This document shows, in pieces, positions 10,545 through 21,812 of a stretch of 21,812 nucleotides of DNA. The stretch's first letter is position 1. Each line of letters begins with the position of its first letter. The translations under genes were made by a program, and so were the position numbers. Source of the DNA: Candidatus Helarchaeota ASGARD archaeon Hel_GB_B (GTDB lineage Archaea; Asgardarchaeota; Lokiarchaeia; Helarchaeales; HEL-GB-B); the NCBI GenBank assembly GCA_005191425.1, contig SUPR01000063.1, positions 1 to 21,812 of the forward strand, in the 5' to 3' direction. The notes under the pieces were generated by a model. It searched no databases. It saw nothing but the letters and a program-made list of their open reading frames with translations, and had not been told where the DNA came from.

Positions 10545-11024
10545 TCAATCAATTTTTTTAAAAATTTTTTTCAAATCTTTAAGTGTCTCGGAAACTACAG
10601 TTTCAAATGATGACAGTTCTGATCTATTTACCAATCTATCTAAATTTTCTTCCCAATTATTGAACTTATTTAAATCATTAAAAGGGTTTTTCCTCTTTAA
10701 ATCTTTATTAAATTTTGTTATAAAACTACGTTTTATAGAGTTTAATAATATTTTTGCTTGGTTTATATCGTCATCTTTCTCACAAATTACTATAAATTTG
10801 ATTTTATATTTTTTAGATATATCCCCAACAAATTTATACTCATCCGTTTCAATTGTCTGGATTTGTGTTCCTGCCCCTATAGATTGAGCGAATGAATCAA
10901 TTGCGGTAAGAAATCCTGAAATTATTGAAGGGCTCTCTTTGATTGAGTGATAATCTTTTGAAAAGATTAATGTCCCATTCGGTTGTAATACTAAAATATT
11001 TTGGATCGCCATTTTGATCGTCAA
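10545..11024 (-). CDS. stand-alone longin-like domain protein
   Basis: The pattern IQNILVLQPNGTLIFSKDY...IISGFLTAIDSFAQSI...IQTIETDEYKFV...KFIVIC...LLNSIKRSFITKF matches the beta-beta-alpha-beta-beta-beta-alpha-alpha longin order familiar from Asgard proteins. The start is probably ATG at 11012. Confidence 0.7.
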   Translation of the reverse strand: MTIKMAIQNILVLQPNGTLIFSKDYHSIKESPSIISGFLTAIDSFAQSIGAGTQIQTIETDEYKFVGDISKKYKIKFIVICEKDDDINQAKILLNSIKRSFITKFNKDLKRKNPFNDLNKFNNWEENLDRLVNRSELSSFETVVSETLKDLKKIFKKID

Positions 11025-14490: not shown

Positions 14491-15654
14491 ATGTACTCAT
14501 TGTGGAATTTAATCAAAAAAGAATTCGATCGGATTATAACCGACCGAAAATCATTAATTATGTTATTTTTATTACCTTTAATTACTATTATAATATTTGG
14601 GCTTTCGTCGGGTGGTGGATATATATCTACCTTTGATGCTGCCCTTATTTCTTACGATTCTCAGAGTTGGAATGGGACTTCCTATAATAATTATGAATCA
14701 ACAATGATAAATTCTTATCTTAATAGTTCACTCATTAACCTTAATTCTAATCTTGTATTTACCGAGTCATCGGGATTTAATGATTCAAAAATTTTTAACA
14801 GCCTACCCCCCAAGGTAAAATTATTGTTGTACAATGGTGATGTTGCAGTCATTGTAGTGATTCCACCAAATTTTAGTGAAACTGTCAATAAGTCAATTAA
14901 TTCTGTTCTATATTATGTATATGATGCTTCTGATTTGATGACCACAAGTAGTATCGGCGTTTCAATGCAAGAACCACTATTACTCTTTAGAGTGGCAATT
15001 AGTAATTTTAAAGGTGTTGTATTAGCATTTCCATCTCCTGAATATGATGTGCCATCATGGTATAACCAAATTTTAAATTATTCAGCTGCAATATTAATAA
15101 TAATAATAATTTTAGGTACATCAATTAATTTGACAGCATTGAGCGTAGTTTCAGAAGGGCCATTACCCAGAATGATGCTTACTCCTGCGAATAAAACTAA
15201 CACTGTATTAGCTAAATTTATTTCATATTCCGCAATTATGACTGTTCAAGCTCTTGTAGTTTTTTTCGGTAGTATGGCATTTGGTCTATATGTTTTGGGG
15301 AATCTTATTGATATATTAATTGTCTTAATATTAGTTGGATTATCTGGTGTTAGTATTGGTCTATTAATTTCATGTATTAGTACTTCAGAGCAGCAAGCAA
15401 ATCAATTATATATTGGTGTTTTCATATTTTTAATACTTTTTTCAGGAGCTTTTATCCCATTAGAATCGATGCCCGCAGCTGCTCAAATGTTTTCAAATAG
15501 CTTATCTATAACGAATGGTATTCAATTATTTTTAGATGTATCACTAAAAGGAATGTCATTAGACCTACTTCGCGTTAGTTTCATTTTAATTTTCATATTA
15601 GTACTCCTTATAGCATCAATTGTTATATTCAGATTTAGAAAAATGGAGGTTTAA
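14491..15654 (+). CDS. ABC-2 type transporter permease (N-terminal TM, large extracellular domain, five C-terminal TMs)
   Basis: KEFDRIITDRKSLIMLFLLP start motif and coupling region PRMMLTP...LAKF. The loop carries several N-x-S/T sequons. SD GAGGA at 14480-14484. Confidence 0.88.
   Translation: MYSLWNLIKKEFDRIITDRKSLIMLFLLPLITIIIFGLSSGGGYISTFDAALISYDSQSWNGTSYNNYESTMINSYLNSSLINLNSNLVFTESSGFNDSKIFNSLPPKVKLLLYNGDVAVIVVIPPNFSETVNKSINSVLYYVYDASDLMTTSSIGVSMQEPLLLFRVAISNFKGVVLAFPSPEYDVPSWYNQILNYSAAILIIIIILGTSINLTALSVVSEGPLPRMMLTPANKTNTVLAKFISYSAIMTVQALVVFFGSMAFGLYVLGNLIDILIVLILVGLSGVSIGLLISCISTSEQQANQLYIGVFIFLILFSGAFIPLESMPAAAQMFSNSLSITNGIQLFLDVSLKGMSLDLLRVSFILIFILVLLIASIVIFRFRKMEV
15645..15650 (+). 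promoter_or_regulatory. Shine-Dalgarno site (GGAGGT) embedded in the last codons of the upstream permease
   Basis: GGAGGT lies 8 nt before TTG 15659. Analogous GAGGT sites occur at 16847-16851 (before TTG 16858) and 17830-17834 (before ATG 17844). Confidence 0.75.
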
Positions 15655-15658
15655 TTGA

Positions 15659-16855
15659 TTGGGACTAAAAGAATCTTTTTCTAGAATTATAAAATTATTA
15701 TATAAAGAATTTTCACTGATTAAAGGCGATAAAAGGGCTCTTTTTATGGCACTTGCCTTACCTCCATTAATTATTTCAGCATTTGGATTTGTTGGAGTAA
15801 TTAGCGATATTGAAGGGACTCCTATTAATTGTGCTGTAATAACTTATGACTCGCTTGGTTATTATTATCCTCAATACAATACTACTTATTATAATTCGAC
15901 TTGGGATAGCGTTTTTATAAATATGTTTAATAATGGTCAATTTCCGCGGTTAAAATTAAAAATCTTTTATAATGCATCAGAAGACCCTTATAGCATGCAC
16001 GAAGCTAGATTAGACCTTGCTAGTGATAAAGTAGATTTAATCATATTGATACCTGCTGAATTTAGTGAAGCTATTGATCTAGGTTTTCCTGCAATTATTG
16101 ATAATATTCCAGATGGGTCTAATATAGAAACAATTAAAGATTCGCTAAATTTAATGTATACTGCTACTAATATTTTTGTTGAAACGAATAATATAACTCC
16201 ACAAATTAATATGAACTCTCGTCCAGTATATGGTGTTCCTCAAAACGCTAATGAAATAATGGCTTGGGCAAGTACAATTTCTTTACCATTTTTAATAATT
16301 GGTTCCTGTTTAACTCTAACAATTTTATCTGTAGTTAATGAAAAACCGATACCTCGTTTATTAATTACCCCTGCAAAAAAGGGCGAAGTTTTAGCAGCAA
16401 AATATATTGCCAATTCTATTATAATGATTGCACAATGTGTATTAACCGTAACTTTTGCGTCAATATTCGGACTTTATATTTCAGGGTCAATTGTAGACCT
16501 ATTTCTAGCTCTCTTTGCTATTGGTTTTTATGGTATGTGTATGGGTTTACTTATATCAACAATTTCTGATACGGAAACTCAAGCTAACCAACTTTTAGTG
16601 GCTGTCTTCTTAATCATGATACTCTTAAGTGGTATGTTTATTGACATTTCTAACATGAATATTGTCCTCCAAGTTATTGCATATGGTCTACCTTTTGCTT
16701 ACGCTGTACCTTTAATTTCTGAAATATGTTTTAAAGCAAAAGGTATTTTTACAAACCCAACACTATTTTGGAATTTTATGGGCATAATTATTATCTGTAT
16801 GGTAATGATCTTTCTAACATATTTGATTTTTAAATTAAAAAGAAAAGAGGTATAA
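15659..16855 (+). CDS. ABC-2 type transporter permease, paralogue of the upstream gene
   Basis: KEFSLIKGDKRALFMALALP, PRLLITPAKKGEVLAAKY and ETQANQL (EQQANQL in the paralogue), with the same topology. TTG start with SD. Confidence 0.88.
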   Translation: MGLKESFSRIIKLLYKEFSLIKGDKRALFMALALPPLIISAFGFVGVISDIEGTPINCAVITYDSLGYYYPQYNTTYYNSTWDSVFINMFNNGQFPRLKLKIFYNASEDPYSMHEARLDLASDKVDLIILIPAEFSEAIDLGFPAIIDNIPDGSNIETIKDSLNLMYTATNIFVETNNITPQINMNSRPVYGVPQNANEIMAWASTISLPFLIIGSCLTLTILSVVNEKPIPRLLITPAKKGEVLAAKYIANSIIMIAQCVLTVTFASIFGLYISGSIVDLFLALFAIGFYGMCMGLLISTISDTETQANQLLVAVFLIMILLSGMFIDISNMNIVLQVIAYGLPFAYAVPLISEICFKAKGIFTNPTLFWNFMGIIIICMVMIFLTYLIFKLKRKEV

Positions 16856-16857
16856 TA

Positions 16858-17838
16858 TTGCAAGCCAGTGAAAAACAAAAAATAATTGAGGTTTCGAATT
16901 TAAATTTATCCTTCGGTAAAAAGCATATCTTAAAAGACATTTCTTTTTATTGTTATGAAGGTGAAATTCTAGGACTAATGGGCATATCTGGAGCAGGTAA
17001 AACTACAATAGTCCGGGTATTGGTAGCACAATTACCAAATTTCACTGGTAAAGTAATCTGTGCAGGAATGGACGTAAAAAAAAGTGGAATAAAAATACTT
17101 CAAAAAATTGGATATGTCCCTCAACTTGAATCTCTAAATCTCTATTATAATTTTACTGCACTTCAAAATGTTAGAATATTCGGGTCTATGTTTGGGTTGA
17201 GTAAAAAAGAAGCTATTGAACAAGGAAAACGCATTTTTCAAGTTCTCGAAATCCCGGAAGATACATGGAAATCTAAAGTAAAAGATATGTCTGGTGGTGA
17301 AAAAAAGCGAGTTTCAATCGCATTGGGCCTTATTAATAACCCCGAAGTCCTATTTCTTGACGAACCTACTACTGGAGTTGATGCTTCTAAAAGATTCGAC
17401 ATTCTTAATTATCTCAGAAAACTAAATCGCGAAATAAAAACTACAATGGTTATTGTAACCCATGATTTAGAAACTTCTAATATTTGCGATAAAGTGGTCC
17501 TTCTTAGAAATGGGCAAATTGTCGATTTTGATACCCCTGCTAATTTAATTTATAAATTACCTTCAAATGGTGAAATCGCCCGCCTTAAAATTGATGAATT
17601 AAGCAATAAAATTATTGAAACAATTCAAAATAAAGATTATGTTAAATATGTGTTAAGAGTCGGAAAAAATGATATCGAAGTTTATCTTCATGACATTAAT
17701 AACAATATTAAAAAGCTTGTCGATCAGTTAGTCGACAACAATATCCTTGTTTCTTCAGTTACTAGAGGTGAAGCTTCTTTTAAAAGATATTTTCAAATCA
17801 GAATGCAATCTATAGAACAATCAAAAAATGAGGTTTGA
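16858..17838 (+). CDS. ABC transporter ATP-binding protein with C-terminal regulatory domain
   Basis: Walker A GISGAGKT, Q-loop YVPQ, signature MSGGE, Walker B FLDEP and H-loop VTHD. Confidence 0.93.
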   Translation: MQASEKQKIIEVSNLNLSFGKKHILKDISFYCYEGEILGLMGISGAGKTTIVRVLVAQLPNFTGKVICAGMDVKKSGIKILQKIGYVPQLESLNLYYNFTALQNVRIFGSMFGLSKKEAIEQGKRIFQVLEIPEDTWKSKVKDMSGGEKKRVSIALGLINNPEVLFLDEPTTGVDASKRFDILNYLRKLNREIKTTMVIVTHDLETSNICDKVVLLRNGQIVDFDTPANLIYKLPSNGEIARLKIDELSNKIIETIQNKDYVKYVLRVGKNDIEVYLHDINNNIKKLVDQLVDNNILVSSVTRGEASFKRYFQIRMQSIEQSKNEV

Positions 17839-17843
17839 TTAAT

Positions 17844-20800
17844 ATGAAAAAATGGATTTCGATATCTTTGATAATTGGAGTTTTAATTGGTGCTCCTGCA
17901 ATTTCATTAATTATTATTAATATTCCACCTCCCACATACTTTTCTAATAGCGAGATGCGGATGATTTATAGTGGATTTTGGGATTATTCGCGTTCTTTCA
18001 GCACTAAACACGAAAATATTTTTATTGAAACTTCGATTGATAATTTATATTACTCTATTATGGTATATAATGAATTAAATAGTACTTCCATATTCAATTA
18101 TTCTGAAATTGATAAAAAAATATATCATTACTTCTTTTGGAGTAGACAAAATACTAACGGTGGATTTTCAGATATTGCAGGTACTGGAAATATGATCGAT
18201 ACCTATAAAGCAATTATGGGAATAAATGAGACTGAAACATTTATTTCACCTGGAAATTCATCGGATCAAATTAATCTATTATTACAATTCATTAATGGTT
18301 GTAAAGTAGACTCATTTAAATTTCCATTTACCAATATTACTGGTTATTCTTCTATGCCTTTATCTTCTATAATCGATGAATTTGGGCTACCAGCTTATAC
18401 CTCTTATATAATAACTGATGTAAGTAGCACTAGTATGGCAGTTGAAATAATGAATTTATACTCAAAACTACCTTCTAATATAACAAGAATAATCAAATAT
18501 TTTCTCTCCTCTTTAGCACCTTTAGGTGGATTTAGGGCATCTCCTTTTACCCCTTATTCAACCGGTGATATAATTTCAACTTATTATGCAATTCATGGTC
18601 TAAAAATTTTGAACTATTCTTTCAGTATTTTTGAATTAAATAATTCTCTAAAACCTTGGTTAAAAAATTGCCAAAATTCTGATGGGGGTTTTGGAGTTAT
18701 GCCTGGTAATAATTCCAATTTGGAATCTACTTTTTATGCAATAAAAGCACTTCAAGAACTTGGTGATACTCCTAATAATATTTCTGCAGCAATTAATTAT
18801 ATAAAATCATGTCAAAATTTTAAAGGTATCCCTTATAATGGTGATGGCGGATTTGGATATAATGAATTAATTTATACCGAACATTCTGATTATAAGTACG
18901 CTTATTTTGCGGTCGGTGGACTTAAAATATTAGGTGGCAGTTTATCATTAGGCAATTTAACTTCTCTACATGAATGGTTTATATCTAATTACGCAAAAAA
19001 TGGTTTTTTTGGCTTAAAGTCTGTAGTAGCTAATTATTGGGGGTTAAATGCAGCAGAAATTGCAAGTAAAAAAGGTTTTAATATTTTTTCAAGCTATGAA
19101 AATATTTCTTTATATCTGAATATGTGCCAAAATAGTGATGGTGGTTATGGGATAAGACCTAATGAACCTTCGGACGTTTTATCAACTTATTGTGCTATTA
19201 AATCCTATTCAATTATACATATTACTCCACCTAATATCAATAAATCAATAAATTGGCTAAAATCTCTCCAAAACTCTGACGGTGGGTTTAAGACTTATAT
19301 TGATTTTACTTATTTAATTCAATTATATGGGCCATTATTTGGTTTAATTAATGAAGAATTAGTCAATGAAAACATTTCATCCGTCCCTGCCACGTTTTTT
19401 GCGGTCGCTTCACTAAATATATTAGGCTCAAATCCTAATGAAATATGGAATTTAACTTTATGGTTAAAATCCCTACAGAACCCTGATGGTGGTTTCGCTT
19501 TTACTCTTGGATCAAAAAGCGAGGTTATTTCTACATATTATACAATTCAGACATTTAAATACGTAGGTTCATCCCAAGATTCTAGAATGTCTGCAATTGA
19601 ATTTTTAAGGAATTGCCAAGGTTCAGATGGTGGATTTGCTCCATATCCATATTTAGCCGATTTTCTGGGATATTCATATTTATTTGTTTCATATACTGCT
19701 AGTAGATCATTATATTATTTAGGATATTTTCCCGAAAATATCTTATTAACAGTTCGTTGGTTTGCCTCATGCTTTGATTACGAATATTACAACCTCACAA
19801 AATCTGGAATTGGCATAGGCGATGTACCCGGTTTTGGTGCGGATTTAAGAAATACTTATTATACAATGGACATAATTGAACAGCTGAATAAAAATCAAAC
19901 ATTTGACCCAGATCCATGGAACACCCTAATTTTATCTATTCTAATCATTGATTCCACATTCTTAATAGCGTGGCTAATTGGCTCTTTATTTATTAAGAAA
20001 ATTAAAAGAAAGCCTAAAGTAGATGAAAAATTAAAATATAGCATCACCTCGAACCCTGCAATTTTTGTAGAAAAAATGATGGTAAAAGCTGGAAAAAAAA
20101 TAATAATTAAAGACATCTCAATTACATTAAACCATAAAGAAGTACTTGGAGTCATTGGTGAGTCTGGAGCTGGTAAATCAACATTTATAAAAGCTGCTTT
20201 AGGTACACGTAAAGCTACTGGAATAAGAAAAATTTATGGCTATGATGTAGAATCTAATAAAAAGAAACTAAGTCCACTCATTGGATATGTACCTCAAGAT
20301 TTAGGACAAACTTTATATCATAACCTATCAGTTCAAAAGAACATAGAAATTTTCGGTGTACAATATGGTCTTAAAAAAGAAGAAATAGAAAAAGAATCTA
20401 ATATTATTCTAAAAGATTTGGGTATTCTGGACAAGAAAGATGAATTTATTAGAAATTTAAGTGGCGGGCAAAAGCGAAGGGCCTCTATTGCAATAGCTAT
20501 GATTCACCATCCTCTATTATTTATTCTTGACGAACCTACTTCTGGCTTAGATCCTATTATTAGAGAACAACTATGGGAAACTCTTCTAAAAGTAAATGAT
20601 AAATATCAAACTACATTAGTAGTTATTACTCATTATCCTGAAGAGTCTAGATATTGTACTAAATGCGCTATCTTTGGTAGAAAAAGAGGTATGATTGATT
20701 TTGGCACACCACAAGAATTAATTTCAAATTTACCTGGCTCTGGCCGTGCAATTGAAGTTTTGATCCAATCTGATAAAAATAATTTAATAGAAATTCTTCG

Positions 20801-20996
20801 GAATATTCCTGAGTTTGATTTTGTCCTGGAAGAAAGGAAAAACGAACTCTTTAAGATCTTTACCAATTTGACTAGATCTGAAATATTGGAAATATTAACA
20901 AAAAATTTTGAGGCATATGAAATCAAGGATATCCAACAAATTGAAGCCGGGATGAGCGATTATTTTAGATTAAAATCTTTAGAAATTACTGAATAA
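17844..20996 (+). CDS. fusion protein: signal/anchor + prenyltransferase/squalene-oxidase-type repeats + TM helix + ABC ATPase
   Basis: A hydrophobic N-terminus (WISISLIIGVLIGAPAISLIIINI) is followed by about 11 repeats of the W/Y-L-x-x-x-Q-N-x-D-G-G-F...S/D-x-x-x-T-Y-Y-A-I type (~18130-19880). A TM helix at ~19917-19994 is followed by KKIKRKPK, then an intact NBD (GESGAGKS, YVPQ, LSGGQ, ILDEP, ITHY). ATG 17844 fits the SD better than TTG 17835 in the track. Confidence 0.88.
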   Translation: MKKWISISLIIGVLIGAPAISLIIINIPPPTYFSNSEMRMIYSGFWDYSRSFSTKHENIFIETSIDNLYYSIMVYNELNSTSIFNYSEIDKKIYHYFFWSRQNTNGGFSDIAGTGNMIDTYKAIMGINETETFISPGNSSDQINLLLQFINGCKVDSFKFPFTNITGYSSMPLSSIIDEFGLPAYTSYIITDVSSTSMAVEIMNLYSKLPSNITRIIKYFLSSLAPLGGFRASPFTPYSTGDIISTYYAIHGLKILNYSFSIFELNNSLKPWLKNCQNSDGGFGVMPGNNSNLESTFYAIKALQELGDTPNNISAAINYIKSCQNFKGIPYNGDGGFGYNELIYTEHSDYKYAYFAVGGLKILGGSLSLGNLTSLHEWFISNYAKNGFFGLKSVVANYWGLNAAEIASKKGFNIFSSYENISLYLNMCQNSDGGYGIRPNEPSDVLSTYCAIKSYSIIHITPPNINKSINWLKSLQNSDGGFKTYIDFTYLIQLYGPLFGLINEELVNENISSVPATFFAVASLNILGSNPNEIWNLTLWLKSLQNPDGGFAFTLGSKSEVISTYYTIQTFKYVGSSQDSRMSAIEFLRNCQGSDGGFAPYPYLADFLGYSYLFVSYTASRSLYYLGYFPENILLTVRWFASCFDYEYYNLTKSGIGIGDVPGFGADLRNTYYTMDIIEQLNKNQTFDPDPWNTLILSILIIDSTFLIAWLIGSLFIKKIKRKPKVDEKLKYSITSNPAIFVEKMMVKAGKKIIIKDISITLNHKEVLGVIGESGAGKSTFIKAALGTRKATGIRKIYGYDVESNKKKLSPLIGYVPQDLGQTLYHNLSVQKNIEIFGVQYGLKKEEIEKESNIILKDLGILDKKDEFIRNLSGGQKRRASIAIAMIHHPLLFILDEPTSGLDPIIREQLWETLLKVNDKYQTTLVVITHYPEESRYCTKCAIFGRKRGMIDFGTPQELISNLPGSGRAIEVLIQSDKNNLIEILRNIPEFDFVLEERKNELFKIFTNLTRSEILEILTKNFEAYEIKDIQQIEAGMSDYFRLKSLEITE

Positions 20997-21027
20997 ATTT
21001 ATATTCTTCGTCAAAATTGTGAAAAAA

Positions 21028-21812
21028 ATGAGTACAAATGAAAATGTTAGAAACGAAATATTGAAAATAATGACCAAATTCGGATTTTGGGCTATAATGA
21101 AAAATTATATGAACGGAGTTGCTGGTTATATCCGGGCAGGTAATAATAAAATTTACTGTGAAATATTATTTCCCAATGATTACCCAAATAAAAATGCAAT
21201 TTTCAAATTTCCAAATAAAACATCAATAAAAATTTTAAACAAATATAATGAACTAATCCAGAAAAATAAAAAAATATCTCCATTTCAAATCATAGACGAG
21301 CTAAGGTCTACCGTCAAAACATTACCACCACCCGGTGTCATCCTTGAAGAAGACCTAGACCTCGAATTAAACCGAATTAGTAAATATTATAAAATTTCTA
21401 CGTCCAACGACAAATATAAAATTAAAGTAGAATTTGAAAGTCCCAAATTAGTTTTTTATTCAATGGACCTAGACGTCCATAATTATCCAAAATTAATTGA
21501 TATTAAATTTTCAAACGACCTTCAAAAAGTTATAGGTGATCCACACGAATTAGAATTTATGAAAAATTGGAATTCGAGTAGACCACTTGATATCTTGGAA
21601 ATTATTGATTCAGTTAATAAAATTTTGAAAAGTTATAAAGAGTCAATCACTGATGACCAAACAATTTCCATCAAAAATTTAGATATAATAATTGATGGTA
21701 AAAAAATAATCAACAATCTTAATTTTCTGATACAATCTGGTGAATTAATTGGAATTTATACCGAAAATCAAGATATTATTAAACCATTTTTCAATGCTTT
21801 TATAGGAAAACA
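21028..21812 (+). CDS. partial CDS (not in ORF track): two UBC/RWD-like repeats + start of a degenerate ABC ATPase-like domain
   Basis: Open frame of 261 codons from ATG 21028 to the window edge, 31 nt after the fusion gene. It contains YCEILFPNDYPNKNAIFKF and MDLDVHNYPKLIDIKF...KNWNSSRPLDILEIIDSV. From 21664 it reads ISIKNLDIIIDGKKIINNLNFLIQSGELIGI, followed by YTENQDIIKP in place of a Walker A. Confidence 0.75.
   Translation, partial: MSTNENVRNEILKIMTKFGFWAIMKNYMNGVAGYIRAGNNKIYCEILFPNDYPNKNAIFKFPNKTSIKILNKYNELIQKNKKISPFQIIDELRSTVKTLPPPGVILEEDLDLELNRISKYYKISTSNDKYKIKVEFESPKLVFYSMDLDVHNYPKLIDIKFSNDLQKVIGDPHELEFMKNWNSSRPLDILEIIDSVNKILKSYKESITDDQTISIKNLDIIIDGKKIINNLNFLIQSGELIGIYTENQDIIKPFFNAFIGK

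Follow-up and report, generated by a model that had tools for sequence, protein, structure and literature searches.

A double toroid carried across the membrane by one ATPase subunit of an Asgard archaeal ABC-2 transporter

We analysed a stretch of 21,812 nucleotides from the Candidatus Helarchaeota archaeon Hel_GB_B (contig SUPR01000063.1; hereafter, the window) and describe a gene on its forward strand, at 17,844-20,996, whose product is one of the two ATPases in a heterodimeric ATP-binding cassette (ABC) transporter of the ABC-2 class (type V, DrrA/ABCA-like). The polypeptide crosses the membrane twice and displays on the outer surface two toroids that resemble the beta subunits of protein prenyltransferases. 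As judged from alignments and motif searches, three features of their enzymatic and complement relatives have been lost, namely the zinc triad, the DxDD acid and the thioester. The transporter operon is conserved as a single copy, mainly in one class of Asgard archaea. Our preferred explanation, which we hold tentatively and rate a little below an even chance, is that the toroids are kept by their tether next to the exit of a lipid-type exporter, where they bind or hand off cargo without catalysing a reaction. The novelty lies in the pairing of an ATPase whose own chain bears an external domain on the far side of the membrane with a fixed operon that also includes a dead ATPase; the fused ATPase and the permeases are ordinary ABC-2 members.

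Membrane topology and fold of the fusion protein

The open reading frame of the fusion runs from 17,835 to 20,996 on the forward strand. The ATG at 17,844 is the likely start of the gene, giving a product of 1,050 amino acids (aa) plus a stop; it is preceded by a GAGGT box at 17,830-17,834 and lies 5 nt past the stop of the upstream ATPase gene. Hydropathy analysis identified two hydrophobic segments in the protein. The first transmembrane segment (TM1, aa 4-28; 17,853-17,927) follows the basic residues MKK, and the second (TM2, aa 692-718; 19,917-19,997) is hydrophobic in all homologues and leads into a basic cytoplasmic flank, KKIKRKPK (aa 718-725; 19,995-20,018). An earlier reading of the letters alone, here called the original prediction, had proposed the same pair, namely an N-terminal signal or anchor and one membrane helix with a basic flank, and our analysis agrees with it. 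The ~660 aa between TM1 and TM2 form a sequon-rich ectodomain. Beyond the flank, a linker of variable length leads to the ATPase domain and its C-terminal DrrA/ABCA-type extension (aa ~739-1,050; 20,058-20,993), delimited by PF00005, TIGR01188 and the catalytic motifs. Across the family the N-terminus consists of basic residues, ~22 hydrophobic residues and then [IL][IV]N[IT]P, with a conserved INIP motif at the outer end of TM1. Because this hydrophobic length and conserved end fit a retained signal-anchor better, TM1 is probably an uncleaved signal-anchor rather than a cleaved signal peptide.

The toroids are placed outside the cell because they lie between the two membrane segments, the ATPase must be cytoplasmic, and basic residues flank the cytoplasmic sides. 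This location, which had also been proposed originally, is further supported by the enrichment of N-x-S/T sequons across the family. At least 15 sequons had been claimed for the barrel region; we counted 17 in the ectodomain, against 9.6-10.0 ± 2.7 expected from two shuffle sets. An excess was found in the ectodomain of 18 of 18 homologues (11-23 observed vs 6-12 expected), and over the homologues the density is ~2.5 sequons per 100 aa outside, falling to ~0.9 per 100 aa on the cytoplasmic side. We predict from these patterns that the toroid region is extracellular and that it is probably glycosylated.

The linkers from TM1 to the first helix of the ectodomain and from the second barrel to TM2 are only a few residues each, so that the ectodomain must sit directly on the membrane surface. 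The latter linker carries a conserved juxtamembrane motif, FDPxPW in the family and FDPDPW in this protein (aa 687-692; 19,902-19,919), and ends in an invariant Trp (W692). TM2 itself is poorly conserved in sequence, with 15-30% identity in distant homologues, and the linker from TM2 to the ATPase retains 5-35% identity and contains indels of up to 8 residues. As these are the least conserved parts of the protein and the linker varies in length, the connection appears to be a tether rather than a rigid rod.

The ectodomain is built of internal repeats. Six match the strict pattern Q-x2-[DN]GG[FY], and eight have a clear [DNGL]GG[FY] core (aa 105, 227, 280, 334, 432, 479, 548 and 595); four more are degenerate (aa ~52, ~165, ~386 and ~655). 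About 11 repeats, enough for two barrels, had been proposed originally. The count is instead 12, corresponding to two six-repeat toroids, and the two barrels are borne out by structure prediction. Pfam likewise recovers the prenyltransferase-type families expected for such repeats: PF00432 (Prenyltrans) matches at 1.3e-41 (143.5 bits vs a cut-off of 26.5) and is also matched by 18 of 18 homologues, and PF13249 and PF13243 (SQHop_cyclase_N and _C) are above their curated cut-offs as well. An AlphaFold2 model of the ectodomain, computed with an 18-sequence family alignment, contains ~27 helices in two groups that form two alpha/alpha toroids (predicted local distance difference test, pLDDT, 87.3; predicted TM-score, pTM, 0.89).

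In an exhaustive structural scan with this model, beta subunits of protein prenyltransferases came first (Z 25.6-27.9, root-mean-square deviation (rmsd) 2.6-3.4 Å, ~280 residues), well ahead of class II cyclases (Z ~19), glycosidase/epimerase toroids (~17; range 15-17) and complement/CD109 thioester domains (~15). Foldseek comparison with the beta subunits of RabGGTase and GGTase-III (3dss_B, 6o60_B) gave target TM-scores of 0.69-0.71 at an rmsd of 3.0-3.4 Å and 21-22% identity, and a family profile searched against solved structures matched RabGGTase beta at 6e-24. Barrel 1 (aa ~60-383; 18,021-18,992) holds repeats 1-6 and is delimited by model helices, PF00432/PF13249 stretches and conservation. 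Barrel 2 (aa ~394-683; 19,023-19,892), defined by the Foldseek alignments and conservation, holds repeats 7-12 and is the toroid that best matches RabGGTase beta. Sequential Foldseek matches, and single-barrel matches in AFDB, cover model residues 366-657, whereas single-barrel prenyltransferase matches in the exhaustive scan span residues ~5-660 with only ~280 residues aligned. Thus, in the model, the N-terminal helix of the ectodomain (aa 35-50; 17,946-17,993; model helix H7-22) probably completes the membrane-proximal barrel 2, and barrel 1 is probably an insertion into it. Such an arrangement would bring both membrane helices to the same barrel.

The resemblance to prenyltransferase beta subunits (RabGGTase/GGTase-II, GGTase-III, FTase and GGTase-I) includes the PF00432 repeat family, the fold and the aromatics of the inner helices. 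Unlike these cytosolic, single-barrel subunits, however, the toroids of the fusion are extracellular, number two per chain and have the zinc D/C/H residues replaced; they are also flanked by membrane helices and fused to an ABC ATPase, with no alpha subunit evident. For the PPTA-repeat alpha-subunit family, no match was found in the 10 window reading frames from 7,206 onward (the genome was not searched for PF01239). Class II terpene cyclases (SHC, OSC, and drimenyl and ent-copalyl diphosphate synthases) share with the fusion two toroids per chain and the families PF13249 and PF13243, and barrel 1 may interrupt barrel 2 behind its first helix, much as their gamma domain is inserted into beta. 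The ectodomain would also lie against the membrane, as monotopic SHC does. Alignments over the cyclase didomain extend over 366-419 residues at Z 15.6-19.4 (DMS, 410 residues, Z 19.4; SHC, 366 residues, Z 19.4), at an rmsd of 6.8-10.5 Å for DMS and SHC and of 6-14 Å overall. The fusion differs from the cyclases in lacking DxDD and DCTAE, in its domain orientation, in its position on the outer face and in its two membrane anchors. The modelled didomain therefore seems to resemble the beta-gamma arrangement without reproducing it.

Clear purifying selection acts on the ectodomain over a divergence at which 27-38% of its residues are still identical. In distant homologues barrel 2 is the better conserved toroid (30-42% identity vs 24-35% for barrel 1). 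Invariant residues outside the GGF cores are F60, S109, D110, D660, P662, F664, N670 and W692. The invariant Asp residues of the ectodomain (D110, D548 and D660) do not fall within a D.DD or DCTAE motif, and D110 and D660 occupy the ordinary ‘GGF-x-D...TY’ register of the repeat, one in each barrel.

A regular-expression search of the entire 1,050-aa protein found no DxDD, DxC, CGEQ, DDxxD or DCTAE, the first three of which had already been noted as missing. In the HMMER alignment with RabGGTase beta, the zinc ligands D238, C240 and H290 align to S, E (P in this protein) and S, and no diphosphate-binding R/K pattern was found at the equivalent positions. The aromatics of the lipid-pocket helices of RabGGTase beta (W52 and W243/W244) align to conserved aromatics in barrel 2; this is a weak hint of a lipid pocket, as the positions belong to the general repeat. 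The thioester family PF07678 is matched below threshold (14.5 bits vs a cut-off of 22; 9 of 18 members, best 2.4e-5), as is the N-terminal family of Ribophorin II, PF05817 (14.0 bits; 4 of 18 members, best 8.9e-5). Three identities were rejected for want of their defining motifs: canonical prenyltransferase (the zinc triad), class II cyclase (DxDD/DCTAE) and thioester domain (CGEQ). Sequence evidence of this kind excludes the classical activities of the toroid superfamily, and leaves room for a new active site.

The transporter and its operon

The nucleotide-binding domain (NBD) of the fusion was predicted to be intact, and all of its catalytic motifs are indeed present and invariant across the family: Walker A GESGAGKST (aa 772-780; 20,157-20,183), the Q-loop with Q818 (20,289-20,300), the signature LSGGQ (aa 872-876; 20,457-20,471), Walker B LFILDE (aa 892-897; 20,517-20,534), the D-loop SGLD (aa 900-903; 20,541-20,552) and the H-loop with H930 (20,625-20,636). 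The domain matches PF00005 above the cut-off (9.5e-26, 91.5 bits) and TIGR01188 (drrA) at 1.6e-43, below the equivalog cut-off. Its best solved relatives are ABCA4, ABCA3, ABCA1 and ABCA7 (4e-53 to 4e-43); the next class follows only at 5e-32, a gap of at least ~11 orders of magnitude.

The fusion is the fourth gene of an operon in the order Permease A, Permease B, plain ATPase, fusion and dead ATPase, all on the forward strand, with gaps of 2-5 nt among the first four genes and 22 nt before the fifth. Permease A (14,491-15,654; 387 aa) is of the ABC-2 type, matching PF12698 (ABC2_membrane_3) at 6.4e-22 as well as PF12679 and PF01061. Hydropathy predicts a first membrane segment, an external loop (aa ~46-189, with 5 sequons) and then 5 further membrane segments. 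Permease B (15,659-16,855; 398 aa) is of the same type (PF12698, 1.5e-23) and has its external loop at aa ~52-199; the loops of both permeases are ~145 aa each and bear sequons. The only significant solved relative of Permease B is an insect ABCH-type ‘ABCG23-like’ lipid exporter (6.4e-12 over aa 188-395), a class that is reported to pump ceramide by a squeeze-pump mechanism (PMC12578276).

The plain ATPase (NBD-A; 16,858-17,838; 326 aa) has all motifs intact and matches PF00005 at 4.6e-28 and TIGR01188 drrA at 1.7e-58. It aligns with the fused ATPase at 34% identity (E 8e-45), with GISGAGKTT, MSGGEKKR, LFLDEPTTGVD and VTHD in the alignment. By sequence, both ATPases fall in the DrrA/ABC-2 class, and with its two ABC-2 permeases the transporter is of type V and DrrA/ABCA-like.

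Only the first 264 aa of the fifth gene (21,019-21,810) are present in the window, where it is truncated by the contig end. Near-identical contigs contain the whole gene, with a product of 518 aa (P0122; L009:13182-14738), and in one relative the product reaches 748 aa. The N-terminal ~200 aa are modelled by AlphaFold2 as two RWD/UBC-like alpha-beta4-alpha units (pLDDT 86.5), for which look-alikes in the ESM Atlas include RWD, UFC1, BRE and FANCL as sub-threshold leads only. The C-terminal ~300 aa form an ABC ATPase domain that has lost the Walker A, signature, Walker B and H-loop motifs. P0122 still aligns with the fused ATPase at 25% identity (E 1e-18) and matches NCBIfam ABC ATPase models at up to 5e-14. 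Were the fused ATPase to pair with the dead copy, no ATP site would be intact; the motor therefore almost certainly consists of the plain and the fused ATPases, with the dead copy as an adaptor or regulator.

The operon is conserved where the identity of the fusion ranges from 35 to 99%, and the five-gene order is kept even at 35% (locus L006). The two permeases are found upstream in L006, L008, L009 and L010, and the dead-ATPase gene follows the fusion in L006, L007, L008 and L009; the L007 contig begins just upstream of the fusion. Loki-type loci contain a sixth conserved gene (L006:12797-13624 and L007:5773-6588; 271-275 aa, mutual identity 29%, E 2e-26), whose product has a longin/roadblock-like N-terminal 110 aa and ~4 membrane segments. 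Helarchaeota-type loci (L008 and L009) have instead a PAC2 proteasome-assembly-chaperone gene in the sixth position. A complex prediction with the permease loops (aa 46-189 and 52-199) and the ectodomain, made without controls, scored 0.00 and is evidence neither way.

Distribution and integrity of the fusion

The window is the entire 21.8-kb contig (C144) of a 3.5-Mb metagenome-assembled genome (MAG) in 182 contigs, 93.7% complete and with 4.9% contamination, and its G+C content is ~28%. A Pfam scan identified archaeal marker genes in the window, namely GatD/GatE, CLP1 and a longin/sybindin-like protein. Close homologues carry the source labels Helarchaeota (the closest ones), Promethearchaeota, Lokiarchaeota and Sigynarchaeum. 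Near-identical DNA is present in hydrothermal-vent and marine-sediment metagenomes, and no RNA data set was listed as containing the stretch.

A word-indexed search of NCBI, JGI, ENA and Logan recovered the same architecture in 23 full-length clusters at 99-32% identity, with lengths of 1,021-1,099 aa save for two shorter entries of 960 and 997 aa. Searching an ectodomain profile against 1.8 billion representatives yielded about a dozen end-to-end matches of 1,040-1,100 aa, plus fragments. The family has a sharp boundary: full-length matches to the profile range from 1e-226 to 1e-120, and repeat-only, multi-stretch matches follow from 1e-73. Among 400 Asgard genomes, 85 contain the fusion, each with one match except G259, which has two within one frame. 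The carriers come mainly from the class to which the window belongs (75 of 135 in one family) and from its order, with one in another class.

Given that the window is a single contig of a fragmented MAG with some contamination, an error of assembly or gene calling might have merged two distinct genes, one for a secreted toroid protein and one for an ATPase, and a check of the junction for a chimera had been suggested originally. We identified a 99%-identical copy on five contigs, two of which come from separate ENA and NCBI records. Contigs from three studies (2017, 2018 and 2025) bridge the junction region (19,676-20,512) with no differences from the window, and an open frame of ~1,050-1,090 aa without stops is found in most of the 85 carrier genomes. 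With 85 genomes, 23 clusters and independent contigs across the junction, the artefact was rejected, and we give it next to no weight.

Automatic annotation has named these proteins ‘ATP-binding cassette domain-containing’ or ‘prenyltransferase/squalene oxidase repeat-containing’. The original prediction had called an ATPase with its own outside domain unusual; in keeping with this, full-text searches found no description of the fusion in the searchable literature. To our knowledge, there is no described case of an ATPase subunit that recrosses the membrane with a large external domain while the permeases stay separate proteins. A paper on the evolution of triterpenoid cyclases treats the superfamily but not the fusion family (PMC12324236).

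Several other toroid proteins were observed. The same genome contains two further Prenyltrans-type loci, one in a 368-aa frame (G000:C178:6518-7438, reverse strand; 7.9e-22) and one as a weak match within a 1,442-aa frame (G000:C117:12887-13285, reverse strand). The nearest non-fused relatives (P0091, P0137 and P0141) are archaeal or bacterial proteins with a single or double toroid that match both Prenyltrans and PF05817, the latter at up to 9.4e-10, and two ESM Atlas rows do likewise. This suggests that the luminal domain of the oligosaccharyltransferase subunit Ribophorin II may belong to the same toroid family. The fusion shares with this domain, and with the thioester domains of A-macroglobulin and complement proteins, an extracytoplasmic and apparently non-catalytic toroid. 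It differs from the thioester domains in lacking CGEQ and in its sub-threshold PF07678 match, and from Ribophorin II in that nothing in the window links it to oligosaccharyltransferase. A 620-aa protein from a JGI metagenome (P0114) has an ECF S-component (PF12822, DUF6580) at aa 31-183, followed by a Prenyltrans/SQHop/TED-like domain. Given this second kind of fusion and the relatives that overlap with Ribophorin II, extracytoplasmic non-catalytic toroids are a wider, poorly understood theme.

Elsewhere in the window, a 159-aa protein is encoded on the reverse strand at 10,545-11,024, between gatD and the gene for a CLP1-like kinase. Its Pfam matches to Sybindin (1.9e-4) and Longin (7.9e-4) are sub-threshold, and it is a candidate eukaryote-like trafficking-type domain. 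Between 1,001 and 2,000 the G+C content falls to 18%, and there is no reading frame of at least 80 aa in 1,162-2,288. Rfam and tRNA scans of the window, the low-G+C stretch included, found nothing.

Possible roles of the toroid pair

Among solved structures, those nearest to the fused ATPase and to Permease B are the lipid exporters ABCA1, ABCA3, ABCA4 and ABCA7 and Tribolium ABCH-9C; as in the system described here, their external domains rest over a membrane core of the ABC-2 type. Those of ABCA1 are thought to receive the exported lipid. In ABCA proteins, however, these domains are permease loops, whereas the external domain of the fusion belongs to the ATPase polypeptide and has two membrane segments of its own; the system described here also has separate permease genes and an additional dead ATPase subunit. 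A second likeness, by analogy of function, may be to LptC on LptB2FG and MlaD on MlaFEB, membrane-anchored accessories that take lipid at the transporter exit. Unlike the fusion, LptC and MlaD have beta-jellyroll and MCE folds, are separate polypeptides and work in a diderm envelope, which Asgard archaea lack.

We propose that the fused ATPase would pair with the upstream plain ATPase and with both permeases and their ~145-aa external loops. The fusion would then act as a tether, so that each pump has a single ectodomain, fixed on a given side and next to the permease loops. The toroids would bind or hand off the hydrophobic cargo leaving the pump without catalysis, and their closest functional analogues would be the extracellular domains of ABCA1 and the membrane-anchored LptC. 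Delivery of lipids, one of the functions raised in the original prediction, seems the most plausible of them. The cargo is most likely a lipid, which may be isoprenoid-based, such as an archaeol- or GDGT-type (glycerol dialkyl glycerol tetraether) lipid or a polyprenyl-phosphate-linked compound. An isoprenoid or polyprenyl-phosphate-linked cargo is our best guess because all enzymatic relatives use the fold to bind isoprenoids, and the membranes of archaea are isoprenoid too. The dead ATPase with its RWD/UBC-like domains would serve as a cytoplasmic regulator or adaptor and not as a motor. We also consider a more elaborate version, improbable when taken as a whole, in which this is an archaeal ABCA-type lipid export system with a built-in acceptor. 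Here, a covalently tethered, isoprenoid-binding double toroid would receive archaeal lipids, or compounds linked to polyprenyl phosphate, as they leave the pump at the outer leaflet and would deliver them, for instance, to growing protrusions, vesicles or surface glycoconjugates, under the control of the RWD/UBC-like and, in Loki-type loci, longin-like cytoplasmic partners.

Several observations weigh against a non-catalytic hand-off of lipids. The toroid superfamily, as far as its members have been characterised, consists for the most part of enzymes. A new active site could exist without any of the known motifs, and S109-D110, D660 and N670 are invariant outside the core GGF motif. As far as homology goes, the affinity of the ATPase to ABCA proteins would not fix the cargo, nor would it settle the direction of transport, the top match, ABCA4, being an inward flippase. 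Finally, three closed, single-contig genomes from a sister family of the same class do not contain the fusion gene, suggesting that its function is dispensable for some Asgard archaea.

Alternatively, the ectodomain might possess a non-canonical active site and act at the exit on a surface polymer or on the substrate being exported, for example by cyclising, transferring or hydrolysing an isoprenoid or glycan, so that the pump feeds a tethered catalyst. The dominance of enzymes in the superfamily, the matches to glycosidase/epimerase toroids at Z 15-17, the invariance of the polar residues S109, D110, D660 and N670 outside the structural GGF core and the purifying selection on the ectodomain all speak for it. 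Yet the three zinc ligands, DxDD/DCTAE and CGEQ are all absent, as is a diphosphate-binding R/K pattern at the positions known from RabGGTase, and the invariant Asp residues stand in the normal repeat register of both barrels and may be structural. There is, moreover, no evident energy source or activated isoprenoid donor outside the cell, and on balance we regard an enzyme as unlikely.

Less likely again is a mechanotransmission machine instead of a transporter, in which ATP-driven closure of the ATPase dimer would move the toroids through TM2 and let them do work outside the cell, as in FtsEX, MacB and LolCDE with their external domains. Such coupling would need precisely the covalent connection of ATPase, membrane helix and ectodomain that the protein provides; the junction of barrel 2 with TM2 at FDPxPW is conserved, without a linker and rigid-looking, and the permeases bear sizeable external loops. 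However, the low conservation of TM2 and the indels of the linker behind it describe a flexible tether ill-suited to force, and the permeases are of the ABC-2/type V class and not of the type VII fold of FtsX and MacB, to which the known mechanotransmitters belong. The idea that the toroids capture a scarce compound such as a corrinoid, turning an exporter-fold ABC transporter into an importer, had been raised in the original prediction and was not borne out. A toroid fused to an uptake component does exist in P0114, and ABCA4, the best match of the ATPase, works inward. None of the 18 family members, on the other hand, matches Cobalamin_bind (PF01122) or DUF4430 at E ≤ 1; transcobalamin, intrinsic factor and haptocorrin are absent from the profile matches to solved structures and from the top 50 structural matches; and no beta-domain follows the barrels. 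Nothing points to a conversion into an importer: the ABC-2 permease family consists mostly of exporters, most of the solved structures nearest to the permease and the ATPase are lipid exporters, and we consider uptake very improbable.

A sizeable share of the Asgard archaea, which are the closest prokaryotic relatives of eukaryotes, has this design as a fixed feature. Its three elements are a lipid-exporter-like core of ABCA/ABCH character; the nearest prokaryotic look-alike of the prenyltransferase beta subunit, stripped of catalysis and placed outside the cell; and a dead ATPase with ubiquitin-E2/RWD-like domains. Even if the toroids were structural only, they would represent a well-defined, lineage-specific transporter accessory. 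Should they bind isoprenoid lipids, the family would offer a testable handle on how Asgard archaea move lipids to surface structures, and would constitute a new solution to the hand-off problem that is solved otherwise by ABCA1, Lpt and Mla. If the toroids do act as the built-in acceptor of an archaeal lipid exporter, the system would be an Asgard membrane-remodelling device linked to eukaryote-like regulatory modules, and its toroid would be linked to the ancestry of the eukaryotic prenyltransferase-beta and Ribophorin II domains.

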